Shown here piece after piece: positions 13,621-61,424 of a stretch of DNA of 64,000 nt. The first letter of the stretch is position 1; each line of letters starts with the position of its first letter. The notes beneath the pieces are model-generated. The model had not been told where the DNA came from and made no database searches. It saw nothing but the letters and a program-made list of their open reading frames with translations. This DNA comes from an uncultured Synechococcaceae cyanobacterium. Its GTDB lineage: Bacteria > Cyanobacteriota > Cyanobacteriia > PCC-6307 > Cyanobiaceae. The stretch covers positions 3,706 to 67,705 of the forward strand of contig CACGPQ010000001.1 of assembly GCA_902574955.1 (NCBI GenBank), read 5' to 3'. The translations under genes and the position numbers were made by a program.

Positions 13621-13705
13621 GGAGAGGTGGCTGAGTGGTCGAAAGCGAATGACTCGAAATCATTTAATAGGAAACTATTCGTGGGTTCGAATCCCACCCT
13701 CTCCG
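13621..13705 (+). tRNA. tRNA-Ser(CGA)
   Basis: Acceptor stem GGAGAGG/CCTCTCC, anticodon loop CTCGAAA, long variable arm, GTTCGAATC T-loop; CCA not encoded. Confidence 0.96.
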
Positions 13706-15262: not shown

Positions 15263-15470
15263 CAATTAATACTATAGATATTCGATATTTTTTCCAAAAA
15301 ATTATATACAGCAGAAACTCCTCCTCCCACACTAATTTCTTATATTTAAACAACCTTTTCTCTAAATTTGAGTGTTCTTTAAAGACAAATATTATGGAAT
15401 AGACAAGTGGCACATGTGACAGTTAAGTAACATCCCATTCATACCTCCCACGAAAAAGAATTAAATGGGA

Positions 15471-15476: not shown

Positions 15477-15482
15477 AGGCAT

Positions 15483-15576
15483 GTGTGAAGGAGTGGTTTA
15501 CTGAAAAAGTGGAAACAAGGAAACACTTGATTTAGTTAAACCAAGAAAGACCTCTATTAATAGGGGTCTTTTTTTT
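15483..15576 (+). ncRNA. yfr2: Yfr2-family cyanobacterial sRNA
   Basis: 5' GTGTGAAGGAG, central hairpin with GGAAACAAGGAAACA, and terminator AAAGACCTCTATTAATAGGGGTC-T8. Confidence 0.9.
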
Positions 15577-18842: not shown

Positions 18843-20225
18843 TTAATCTAAATCAGGCATTTCTAGAGCTGGTTCACTCTTTCTGTCGATTCCTTTTTCG
18901 AAACCAGCAGCGGCTGCTCTAGCACGACCAGCATGCCAAAGATGACCAATGAATGTAAACCATCCTAGGAAGAATTGAGCTGCAGCTAACCATTGTCTTA
19001 GGTTAACGAAGTTAACAGCGTTAGGCTCTGTAATGATTCCACCAACAGAGTTGATAGAAGCGTTTGGAGCATGAGTCATGTATTCTGCTGCTCTTCTTAC
19101 CTGCCAAGGCTGAATATCATTTTGGATTTTCTCAAGGCTCAAACCATTAGGTCCTCTTAAAGGCTCTAACCATGGCCCTCTGAAATCCCAAAATCTCATT
19201 GTTTCACCACCAAATATAATTTCACCAGTAGGAGATCTCATGAGATACTTACCTAGACCTGTTGGTCCCATTGTTGAACCTACGTTAGCTCCGATTCTTT
19301 GATCTCTCACTAGGAAAGTAAAGCTTTGAGCCTGTGAAGCTTCAGCATTTGTTGGGCCATAAAACTCTGAAGGGTAAGCAGTGTTATTAAACCAGATGAA
19401 CGTTGAAGCAATAAAACTTGCTACACAAATTCCACCAAGAGCATAACTTAACAGTCCTTCACCATTCCAGATAAAAGCTCTTCTTGCCCATCCAAAAGGT
19501 TTGGTAAAGATATGGAATATTCCTCCAATAATTGCAGTAATACCCACGTAAACATGTCCGCCAACAATATCTTCAATAGAGTTAACACCGATTATTGAAC
19601 CAGCTCCTCCCCATGGAGATCTGAATAGATAACCAAGAATAACTCTTGGATCTAATGTTGGGTTTACAAGTCTGACTTCACCACCACCCGGTGCCCATGT
19701 GTCATATGCACCGCCAATAAAACACCAGTTTACTGACCATGCTAGTGCTCCTACACCTAGAACAATCAAATGATATCCGAGGATATTTGTCATTTGATTT
19801 TTATCTCTCCAATCGGTTGAGAAAAATGGGAAATCTTCTTCAAGTTTTTCTGGACCCGCTAATGAATGGTAAATACCACCAAAACCAAGTACAGCAGAAG
19901 CTATCAAGTGAACCACACCTGCTTGGAAGAAAGGCATGATATCAGTAACTTCACCACCTGGGCCTATTCCGTAGCCAAACATTGCAACGTGTGGCATACA
20001 GATTAAACCTTGCTCCCACATTGGTTTATCAAAAGTAAAATGATTAACCTCAAAGAGCATCATTGCTCCCGCCCAAAAGACTATTAGTCCAGAGTGAGCA
20101 ATGTGAGCTCCTAATAAACGTCCAGATAAATTGATTAATCTAGCGTTACCTACATACCAGGCATAACCAGTTTCCTCAATACTTTGGTTTGGAGCTCTCA
20201 ATAAATTATTAAAGGGCGTTTCCAC
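18843..20225 (-). CDS. psbC: Photosystem II CP43
   Basis: Canonical CP43 sequence; GTG start overlaps psbD by 17 nt. Confidence 0.98.
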
Positions 20226-49069: not shown

Positions 49070-49161
49070 ATAACAAAAGCATTTTTACGGATTTACTATA
49101 AAAATAATTCAGTTAAAATCTGTGAGCTTAATTGAAATTTTCATGTAAGAATTAGGTAATT

Positions 49162-49201
49162 GAGAGATTGTTTTTAGCTAAGAAACAATCTCTTTTTTTT
49201 T
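49162..49201 (+). terminator. Rho-independent terminator
   Basis: GAGAGATTGTTT-loop-AAACAATCTC followed by a T-run. Confidence 0.8.
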
Positions 49202-49216
49202 AATATTTTTTCTCAT

Positions 49217-58566: not shown

Positions 58567-58797
58567 ATGAATAAGTTTAGGATTGCCAAAATAATTATAG
58601 TTTTTTCATCATTATCGTATTTGAGTGTTTCTTTTTTAAGAAATTATAATTCTCCAGAAAATATAGAAAAAAGGTGTATTCTTAAATTTGAAAAAGATTT
58701 TAAAAATAATTTGGAAACATCTCATGAAGAATGGAATCAAATTTTAGATTTAGCTGATAACAATTATTTAAAATGTATGGGAATAACTCAGTATTAA
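58567..58797 (+). CDS. Hypothetical protein with N-terminal TM and two Cys
   Basis: 76-aa ORF abutting the next gene. Confidence 0.6.
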   Translation: MNKFRIAKIIIVFSSLSYLSVSFLRNYNSPENIEKRCILKFEKDFKNNLETSHEEWNQILDLADNNYLKCMGITQY

Positions 58798-58799
58798 TT

Positions 58800-59015
58800 A
58801 TGGGAGAGGCAAAGAGAAGAAAAAATTTAGGTATCCCGCCTAGAGAAAAAACTGAAGATATAAAGTTGCCTCAACTTGATAAAAAAGCCATACAACAAAA
58901 AGTCAGGTCTACATTGTATAAATATCCAATTATTCCTTTTCTTTTTTATGGAGCTGCAATATTGATCCTAATCGGAGGTTTATTTTATGTTTTCAAATCC
59001 TTCCATATAGCTTAA
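58800..59015 (+). CDS. DUF2839 family protein
   Basis: MGEAKRR start and C-terminal TM. Confidence 0.8.
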   Translation: MGEAKRRKNLGIPPREKTEDIKLPQLDKKAIQQKVRSTLYKYPIIPFLFYGAAILILIGGLFYVFKSFHIA

Positions 59016-59696: not shown

Positions 59697-59972
59697 ATGA
59701 TTAAAAATTTAAAAGAGGGCCTTGAAGAATTTGAAGATTATGATTCAGAACTGTTACTTAAGATTCTAAATAAGACATCACTGGAGAATGAAAAAGGCGA
59801 TGATAAAGAACTATTTGTAGATGAAAATTGGAAAATTAATTCAAAAAATATGAGTAATATAATTCATTCAGATAATTCAAATTTGAAAAGAATATTATCA
59901 GATATTTTCCCTAATAAAAAAATAGTGATTCAGGATAATAATGATGGGTCGCAAACAATTTTCTTATCCTAA
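59697..59972 (+). CDS. Hypothetical protein
   Basis: 91-aa acidic ORF. Confidence 0.6.
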   Translation: MIKNLKEGLEEFEDYDSELLLKILNKTSLENEKGDDKELFVDENWKINSKNMSNIIHSDNSNLKRILSDIFPNKKIVIQDNNDGSQTIFLS

Positions 59973-60086
59973 TTTAGGAAATATTAAAACCTTGCTTATA
60001 CTATCTATTCAATATTTATTTTTTTGAGAAATATTTAGTAAAAATTACTCTCGCAGAATTTTTTTAAAGATGTTATTGTTCATTTA

Positions 60087-60146
60087 CGTTCATCCAAGTT
60101 TATATCTCTGGACGCATGAAATGAGAGTAGGGAACGGGATTCTCAT
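60087..60146 (+). ncRNA. Glutamine-II (Downstream-peptide/Yfr6-like) riboswitch
   Basis: CGTTC pairs with GAACG, TCCA/TGGA hairpin followed by CGCA, ATGAGA/TCTCAT stem and GGAACGGG motif; lies 15 nt upstream of an ATG. Confidence 0.8.
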
Positions 60147-60161
60147 TAACTGCAAAAGACC

Positions 60162-60332
60162 ATGAATAACCTCTTACAAATAAGAGAAAAAATCAAAAGA
60201 GCCAATAGGCTATATGAAGCTCAACTTTTGGCTACTAAAAGTGGAGAATTTACTCCATACAGGAGATCCGTCTTTGAAGAAAGAATCAGGAAAATACAAG
60301 AAGAAATGAAATTGAAAGACTCAAAAAATTAA
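60162..60332 (+). CDS. Small basic protein (56 aa) downstream of the riboswitch, not in the ORF track
   Basis: MNNLLQIREKIKRANRLYEAQLLATKSGEFTPYRRSVFEERIRKIQEEMKLKDSKN. Confidence 0.75.
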   Translation: MNNLLQIREKIKRANRLYEAQLLATKSGEFTPYRRSVFEERIRKIQEEMKLKDSKN

Positions 60333-60357
60333 ATTCTTTTTTGAAACTGATCAATCT

Positions 60358-60385
60358 AGAGGGGGTATTGTCCCTCTCTTTTTTT
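60358..60385 (+). terminator. Rho-independent terminator
   Basis: AGAGGGGG-TATTG-TCCCTCTC-T7. Confidence 0.8.
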
Positions 60386-60524
60386 ATTTTTATAAAAACA
60401 ACGTAATTATTAATTTATTTTTTCGATTATCGATTATTAAAAAGAACATAATTTTGATGCTTTTACTATTGATTTAAATTATATAAATGGCAAATTTAAT
60501 TCAGTAATTAAGAGGTAAATAAAT

Positions 60525-60815
60525 ATGTTTAAAAAGAAAAATAAACAAATTAAAACCGCACCCAATAAATCAAATTTAGAACAAGTTTTATGGTTTATAG
60601 AAAATTATTTGCCCCAAAAGAAAGATCGAGGTGTTCAAAAAAAATTGTATTTGGATAATCTAGAAGTAGAGACTATTAAGATATTTTCTAAATTAACCTC
60701 TACAAGTTCTAAAACATTATTTCCAACTACAAAAAATAAGACAATCTCTTTTACCTTTGGTAATTGGGCCTTGCCTTACCTGAAATTGCTTAAGAAAATA
60801 GGAATAGCTAAGTAA
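60525..60815 (+). CDS. Hypothetical protein
   Basis: GAGG RBS, 96 aa. Confidence 0.6.
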   Translation: MFKKKNKQIKTAPNKSNLEQVLWFIENYLPQKKDRGVQKKLYLDNLEVETIKIFSKLTSTSSKTLFPTTKNKTISFTFGNWALPYLKLLKKIGIAK

Positions 60816-61223: not shown

Positions 61224-61424
61224 ATGGGCGAAGCTAAAAGAAGAGAAGAATTAGGATTACCACCTAGACAAAAAAAAATTGAATTAAATAAATCTGACAG
61301 ATATCTTTCATGGCTTCCAATTACTAAATCAAGAATCAAGAAATACCCTTATATGGGTGTAGCAACAATGGCACTAGGAGCGATAATTTTCTTAGTAAGT
61401 GGGGGCGCAAATAGTATTAATTAG
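61224..61424 (+). CDS. DUF2839 family protein, second copy
   Basis: MGEAKRR start and WLPITK motif. Confidence 0.82.
   Translation: MGEAKRREELGLPPRQKKIELNKSDRYLSWLPITKSRIKKYPYMGVATMALGAIIFLVSGGANSIN

Follow-up and report, generated by a model that had tools for sequence, protein, structure and literature searches.

A Glutamine-II riboswitch unit with a conserved basic two-helix microprotein in marine picocyanobacteria

The window analyzed here is a stretch of 64,000 nucleotides from the genome of an uncultured cyanobacterium of the family Cyanobiaceae, a Prochlorococcus of the high-light type (contig CACGPQ010000001.1). It carries a compact unit on the forward strand, composed of an extended -10 element, a Glutamine-II aptamer, a gene for a basic protein of 56 amino acids and an intrinsic terminator (Table 1). 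These four parts had been proposed in a first-pass annotation of the bare sequence, and all of them are present, to within a few bases of the range given there. The ORF located just downstream of the unit (60525-60815, forward strand) encodes 96 amino acids and has no Pfam match. In a metagenomic protein of 99 residues (P0153), the first ~65 residues of a homolog of this ORF are followed by the C-terminal half of the 56-aa protein, the junction being a T-T-K-N shared by the two; this suggests recombination between neighboring genes or a chimeric assembly. Approximately 1.1-1.4 kb to either side of the unit, two paralogous DUF2839-type small membrane proteins are encoded (58773-59015 and 61224-61424, both on the forward strand), and both begin with G-E-A-K-R-R..L-G-x-P-P-R.

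Table 1. Features of the Glutamine-II unit and further Rfam matches in the window (positions within the 64,000-nt stretch).
Feature	Position	Strand	Basis
Conserved upstream segment, 5' edge of the duplicated cassette	60033-60070	+	Extent of paralog similarity
Extended -10 element TGTTATTGT	60071-60079 (hexamer 60074-60079)	+	Sequence reading
Glutamine-II (type 2, Downstream-peptide) aptamer	60084-60146	+	Rfam RF01704
Aptamer pseudoknot strands	60087-60091 with 60132-60136	+	RF01704 alignment read onto the sequence
Aptamer P1	60093-60096 with 60109-60112	+	RF01704 alignment read onto the sequence
Aptamer P2	60121-60128 with 60139-60146	+	RF01704 alignment read onto the sequence
Linker and expression platform UAACUGCAAAAGACC	60147-60161	+	High conservation among copies
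Gene of the 56-aa basic two-helix microprotein, stop included	60162-60332	+	ORF, homologs, dN/dS, AlphaFold2
Intrinsic terminator (GC-rich hairpin at 60358-60379, then a T run)	60358-60389	+	Terminator scan
IsrR-like antisense RNA (150 bits)	19628-19811		Rfam match
Yfr19	49126-49206		Rfam match
Cyano-1	15479-15547		Rfam match
Yfr10 (just above cut-off)	15310-15390		Rfam match
Long-arm tRNA	13621-13705		Rfam match

The aptamer matched the covariance model RF01704 over its full length (model positions 1-60 of 60) with 49.2 bits, well above the gathering score of 33, and an E-value of 6.5e-9, and the Downstream-peptide fold that had been read from the letters alone was thereby confirmed. Among 28 distinct homologous leaders, P1, P2 and the pseudoknot were paired to 98.3%, compared with 36-58% when the partners were slid against each other. 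Compensatory changes were seen in both P1 and P2, and in eight leaders of relatives the pseudoknot CGUUC/GAACG is replaced by CGUUG/CAACG, a compensatory swap of C:G to G:C. The start codon follows 16 nt past the aptamer, here and in all copies, so that the aptamer lies directly 5' of a short ORF, and the linker between them is free of a Shine-Dalgarno sequence.

For the switching itself two published findings are of importance. In the single reporter test available, performed with a DUF4278-type leader of Prochlorococcus MED4 in Synechocystis, the type 2 glutamine riboswitch acted as an ON switch (PMC6212724), and the authors of the crystal structure proposed that the ligand-stabilized pseudoknot competes with a structure which occludes the ribosome binding site (PMC6698751). 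In the minimum-energy fold of our sequence, GUUCAU of the 5' pseudoknot strand (60088-60093) pairs with AUGAAU (60162-60167), which comprises the start codon and the following Asn codon. This helix of 6 bp (-4.2 kcal/mol) has a z-score of -1.0 and is no better than that of shuffled sequences at this locus; the fold of the alignment favors a different alternative helix, and covariation cannot test the pairing because the bases involved are invariant. In other subtypes of the family a six-base complement to the 5' pseudoknot strand lies on or beside the start codon at shifted positions, with z-scores down to -3.4, and in the 48-aa subtype no such complement at the start codon was found. That the 5' pseudoknot strand might sequester the start codon at this locus is offered as a hypothesis only. 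Codon 2 is AAT and codon 4 the rare CTC in all 48 distinct sequences, and the Met-Asn start is invariant in all subtypes, which fits a constraint on the first codons at the RNA level.

The extended -10 element claimed at first pass could be read in the sequence as TGTTATTGT, and the pattern TGnTAnnnT is conserved in all copies and paralogs examined. It was not flagged by a generic -35/-10 scan, as expected, because there is no -35 element at this position. Transcription is predicted to start at ~60085-60087, i.e., at the 5' edge of the aptamer. The NtcA box pattern GTA-N8-TAC does not occur within 59950-60165, and the gifB-type dual control by NtcA repression and riboswitch, for which such a box at or just after the -10 would be the mark, is not found here. 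The proposed terminator was recovered as well, with five terminator-like calls in the region compared with 0.3 expected from shuffles.

The orthologous main copy of the unit is collinear across ~3.1 kb in ~30 genomes. Paralogous copies in other genomes match the window over ~60033-60388 only, and the unit therefore behaves as a compact cassette; a self-contained nitrogen-status cassette of ~350 bp is its probable nature. In two genomes the cassette is decaying (L048 in genome G125, contig C7; G146, C1:1648461-1648621): the aptamer core reads CAUUCA in place of CGUUCA, and TAA codons interrupt the ORF. Extra copies are therefore both gained and lost.

The ORF is a real gene, conserved and under selection. 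A six-frame search covering 201 genomes of the genus recovered it from 149; of the 68 that are at least 90% complete, 61 carry it, and many genomes have two or more copies. The aptamer sequence precedes all 54 copies of the genus for which enough upstream sequence was available, including the decayed one of L048. For 48 distinct coding sequences, dN/dS has a median of 0.22 in the reading frame of the gene vs. ~1.05 in the two other frames, and length variants of the gene differ by whole codons. Lineages that range in GC content from 32 to 63% use different codons for the conserved residues of the N-terminal helix; selection therefore acts on the protein.

The unit is transcribed. Four marine metatranscriptomes, one from each of four studies, provided contigs that were mapped to 59900-60500, with their depth summed over population variants and paralogs. 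In three of the studies the summed depth reached 1e4 to 4e5 over ~60131-60300 vs. 0-150 in both flanks; it climbs from the bin 60089-60109 and is back at background by ~60362. This is the pattern to be expected from the predicted promoter and terminator, and not from carry-over of DNA. The fourth run (X1) was roughly flat, with a depth of 50-245 across the whole interval and no peak on the unit. Contig depth is an unreliable measure of expression, and the values are consistent with a high abundance at sea.

The deduced protein has an isoelectric point of 10.1 and a net charge of +6. AlphaFold2, run on an alignment of 20 sequences, predicted two helices (residues 3-25 and 35-55) with a mean pLDDT of 82.7, in agreement with the Arg/Lys-rich helical product postulated before. 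It comprises an N-terminal helix module (residues 1-25) and a C-terminal amphipathic helix, joined by a loop in which a Gly and Pro-Tyr are conserved. The earlier statement that the protein lacks the YRG motif is literally true: neither YRG nor [LI]xYRGxxY repeats occur, and Pfam DUF4278 (PF14105, cut-off 25.3 bits) gave no match at E-values up to 10, nor did it match nine other members of the 52-56-aa family. A single Y-R-R-S-V-F keeps the spacing from Tyr to the aromatic residue of the YRG motif. The profile-profile probability between the 56-aa family and peptides consisting of DUF4278 only was 11%, which is no evidence of homology. The only Pfam hit was DUF7897 with 12.5 bits, below its cut-off of 27, and six members of the family were without a match in NCBIfam. 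Structural searches were equally unproductive, as Foldseek returned no match in the PDB and VIA-align found, among 48,161 chains, only generic matches to long helices, whose Z of up to 4.6 is at noise level for helices. A sequence profile search of the PDB gave nothing below an E-value of 0.3. We also considered the protein as a homolog of IF7/IF17. For this comparison real IF17-type proteins, composed of DUF4278 and an IF7-like C-terminal domain, were gathered from other cyanobacteria by a DUF4278 genome search; hhalign probabilities against the IF7-like domain of 16 such proteins were 0.06-0.34%, so that the sequence does not support such a homology.

Residues 1-33 are, however, homologous to the N-terminal helix of proteins in which this helix is fused to DUF4278 (hhalign 97%, E 8.5e-11). 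From an alignment of 30 sequences of eight subtypes we defined an unnamed family, the N-helix module, with the consensus MNxLxLIRxKIxKAxRLHxAQL and the invariant residues M1, N2, L4, R16, and A20; the 56-aa protein conforms to this definition. Several designs were distinguished: the helix alone (33 residues), the helix motif doubled (59 residues), the helix with a different tail (48 residues), the helix with canonical YRG units behind it (59-62 residues), and the helix followed by a C-terminal amphipathic helix as in the protein described here (54-56 residues). In one of the fusions to YRG units, DUF4278 was recognized at residues 26-57 with 29.2 bits. In the 56-aa family the position of the first YRG reads K-S/N-G-E, and the next Pro-Tyr is retained. 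Tandem duplications of helix and YRG unit are found in database proteins of 127-135 residues. Some members of the family are near neutral (pI 6.0-6.8).

When 300 genomes of the taxonomic family were searched, the profile matched in 18 of 42 genera. Full-length relatives of 52-54 residues occur in three further genera with small genomes, and in the others the match is confined to the first 21-33 positions of the profile, in ORFs of several designs. The module is nearly always located right after an aptamer of this class: of 40 loci of other lineages, 32 had an RF01704 match at the gathering score directly upstream, and most of the other eight have a recognizable or decaying aptamer. An NtcA-like box is kept at loci of the Synechococcus type and at several of the low-light type, and the high-light genus and its nearest relative have lost it.

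The distribution of the module extends to viruses. The fusion form is present in 57 records of Synechococcus phages, and in phage S-CBS2 the fusion protein gp099 is encoded behind a Glutamine-II aptamer of 66 bits. A tblastn search with the 56-mer against 50,697 phage records gave no match; phages have the fusion subtype only. In an S-MbCM6 isolate (L204, KJ019027.1, 154779-154943) a protein of helix and YRG type is encoded directly 5' of a carbamoyltransferase gene, and a sub-threshold Glutamine-II match (24.8 bits) is located ~210 nt upstream, beyond a second small ORF.

Public protein sets contain more than 1000 clusters of the family at 90% identity, derived almost exclusively from marine metagenomes and none of them functionally named. 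A profile search of 1.84 billion representatives yielded 59 clusters at 50% identity, all of which are family members or mis-called extensions, and the ESM Atlas returned nothing except the unnamed clusters of the 56-aa family itself. In RefSeq the relatives are listed as "hypothetical protein", often with start codons mis-called through the aptamer. In two database proteins, each a single metagenomic gene call, ~50-55 residues from the start of the 56-aa protein are joined in frame to other coding sequence, which is the bulk of an AAA protein of the Mg-chelatase ChlI type according to Pfam in P0195 (390 aa) and an unidentified longer protein in P0191 (171 aa). Both are probably assembly chimeras or read-through products that arose when the stop codon was lost.

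The genome from which the window derives (1.0 Mb, 60% complete) contains four Glutamine-II matches, and the other three aptamers precede peptides of 33-57 residues with YRG motifs (Pfam DUF4278, 33-43 bits). Both types of glutamine riboswitch model had been named as checks at first pass, and the outcome was divided: the Downstream-peptide model gave these four matches, and the glnA-type model RF01739 (type 1) gave none in the same 60%-complete genome. Five complete genomes of the genus hold 25 Glutamine-II aptamers. Sixteen of the units have GTA-N8-TAC between the -10 element and the aptamer; 14 of these precede DUF4278 peptides, and the remaining two are identical copies within one genome which precede a predicted membrane protein of 109 residues. 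The other nine precede homologs of the 56-aa protein, and all nine are without GTA-N8-TAC and have TGnTAnnnT directly before the aptamer. Every complete genome of the genus examined has both kinds of genes behind Glutamine-II aptamers. Since the 56-aa family stands behind nine of 25 aptamers and its residues 1-33 are homologous to a module of some DUF4278 proteins, the designation of the protein as "atypical" was overstated, and the first-pass interpretation as a whole is supported in part.

Beyond these two kinds, aptamers with an NtcA-like box precede predicted membrane proteins of ~100-109 aa with a repeated A-T-L-W-S-x-L-G (L070 and L075 in genome G052; L159 in genome G341), which are a third class of riboswitch-controlled genes, belonging neither to DUF4278 nor to the helix family. 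In GC-rich genomes of the Synechococcus type, four aptamers of 53-70 bits (L155 and L161 in G245; L163 and L167 in G314) have no obvious ATG-started ORF just downstream, and a simple scan gave frames starting with GTG only.

The closest known counterparts are the loci of the Yfr6/PMM1846 type in Prochlorococcus MED4, in which a type 2 glutamine riboswitch precedes an "IF17-like" DUF4278 peptide (Klaehn et al., 2018, PMC6212724). Both have the same aptamer class and the same succession of promoter, aptamer, ATG 16-20 nt further on, small basic protein and terminator, and as they occur together in the genomes they presumably belong to the same glutamine regulon. Unlike the Yfr6/PMM1846 type, the unit described here encodes a protein without YRG or a Pfam DUF4278 match and lacks the GTA-N8-TAC that all DUF4278 units carry between -10 and aptamer, and the aptamers of the 56-aa family score lower (41-55 bits vs. 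56-71 bits). The fusions of N-helix and DUF4278 in picocyanobacteria of the Synechococcus/Cyanobium type and in phages (e.g., S-CBS2 gp099), annotated as hypothetical, share the Glutamine-II aptamer. They continue into canonical YRG units, whereas the 56-aa protein has a separate amphipathic helix as its C-terminal half, and the cellular fusion loci inspected (L131) have an NtcA-like box, in contrast to the 56-aa unit.

More distant are gifB/IF17, with its type 1 riboswitch, and gifA/IF7 of Synechocystis. The logic is shared, with a small basic regulator turned on through a glutamine aptamer under ample nitrogen (PMC6212724). However, the aptamer of our unit belongs to a different class, there is no site for NtcA repression, and homology to the IF7-like domain is not detectable. 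The cyanobacterial protein PirA resembles the 56-aa protein in being small (~50 aa) and basic and accumulates upon ammonium upshift; it is controlled by NtcA and the sRNA NsiR4 and not by a riboswitch, and PirA as well as the IFs are reported to be absent from marine picocyanobacteria (PMC8092223).

Earlier publications have described the riboswitch class, its presence in several copies in picocyanobacteria and its association with DUF4278 peptides; they mention other downstream ORFs only as lacking a Pfam match (PMC2864571, PMC6212724). In the open-access literature searched we found no description of the N-helix family, which is not proof of absence. The unit described here is of a known kind, a glutamine riboswitch with a microprotein, but its effector module is undescribed and widespread, and its promoter is no longer under the control of NtcA.

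The following course of events would account for these observations. A promoter of constitutive type with an extended -10 and no NtcA operator would drive transcription from the 5' edge of the aptamer. At high glutamine, which this copy of the aptamer presumably binds, the CGUUC/GAACG pseudoknot would lock and the start region open, so that translation would be switched on, by analogy with the tested Yfr6 leader of MED4. The 56-aa protein would then build up under nitrogen sufficiency and may bind a partner by the conserved face of its N-terminal helix and thereby tune nitrogen assimilation. The product is most likely a small glutamine-induced regulator which acts via this helix, and we estimate the probability of the explanation as a whole, i.e., the cassette, the glutamine-ON switch and the two-helix protein binding a partner via the N-helix, at roughly two in three.

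Which protein this partner might be is a matter of graded alternatives. Glutamine synthetase (GS) may be regarded, by way of speculation, as the leading candidate target; the case for it is one of shared regulation and of domain-fusion analogy only. The 56-aa protein could be a functional analog of IF7, induced by glutamine, which binds and inactivates GS with its Arg/Lys-rich helix. It is basic (pI 10.1), its riboswitch class is also the one that controls IF17-like genes (PMC6212724), and its N-helix is fused to DUF4278 in relatives as the GS-binding IF7-like domain is in IF17. Moreover, recognized gif genes are absent from Prochlorococcus (PMC6212724, PMC6316151), as the first-pass annotation had stated. 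Against such an analogy stand the hhalign probability below 1% toward the IF7-like domain of the 16 real IF17 proteins, the lack of matches in Pfam and NCBIfam, the domain order of the fusions, which is the reverse of that of IF17, and earlier work reviewed in PMC6316151, which argued against GS inactivation of the IF type in these streamlined lineages. We consider this reading, which is that of the first-pass annotation, possible but unlikely.

The target might as well be PII, PipX/NtcA or a transporter for ammonium or urea, in the way in which PirA acts on PII in other cyanobacteria. As neither PirA nor the IFs are reported from marine picocyanobacteria (PMC8092223), these roles would be unfilled, and a protein induced by glutamine alone from a promoter without NtcA operator could report glutamine independently of 2-oxoglutarate. 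The protein has no sequence or structural similarity to known small regulators, though, and the proposal is tentative and not one we would expect to hold.

It is rather doubtful that the 56-aa protein and the co-regulated DUF4278 (YRG) peptides assemble into a heteromer, of which the fusions would be the single-chain version. Fusions of both modules do exist in picocyanobacteria and in the 57 phage records, and both kinds of genes coexist behind Glutamine-II aptamers in every complete genome of the genus examined. Yet the AlphaFold2 model of a fusion has no confident packing of helix and YRG part (pLDDT 45-55 after residue 30), and the promoters differ, the DUF4278 units having an NtcA box and the 56-aa units none. 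The high positive charge would also agree with basic helices which bind nucleic acid or the ribosome and, under ample nitrogen, adjust translation or the stability of RNA, and structural comparison places the protein nearest, if weakly, to helices that bind RNA or DNA and to ribosomal proteins (Z up to 4.6; eL24 with an E-value of 1.1). These matches are at noise level for long helices, however, and some members of the family are near neutral; the probability of this function appears low. That the ORF is untranslated and the unit a riboswitch-controlled small RNA, as was first thought for Yfr6, is hardly tenable: the ORF is short, without a Shine-Dalgarno sequence and constrained at the RNA level in codons 2 and 4, but the in-frame dN/dS, the whole-codon length variants, the residues kept by different codons at 32-63% GC and the in-frame fusion of the module to DUF4278 speak for a protein.

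Returning to the glutamine-induced regulator, a more far-reaching proposal can be formulated, which is unlikely to be right. The N-helix may be the missing effector of the glutamine regulon in marine picocyanobacteria, a functional counterpart of the IF7-like domain that binds GS or another central protein of nitrogen assimilation, with DUF4278 in an accessory role and with the control by NtcA escaped. According to a review, IF17 can inhibit without its DUF4278 part, which stabilizes the protein (PMC6316151). If the proposal were true, DUF4278 would be an accessory stabilizing module, either fused to the effector, as in Synechococcus and phages, or encoded separately, as in Prochlorococcus, and in high-light Prochlorococcus the effector, being free of NtcA control, would report glutamine alone.

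Prochlorococcus and marine Synechococcus are without IF7, IF17, and PirA, yet they have retained several glutamine riboswitches, and how nitrogen assimilation is tuned post-translationally in these organisms is the question addressed by our findings. The unmatched exceptions downstream of the riboswitch form a single coherent family with a conserved helix, which takes about one third of the aptamers in high-light Prochlorococcus. The peptide of 56 (or 33) residues can be synthesized and would be a probe for the target of glutamine signaling in the most abundant phototrophs of the ocean.
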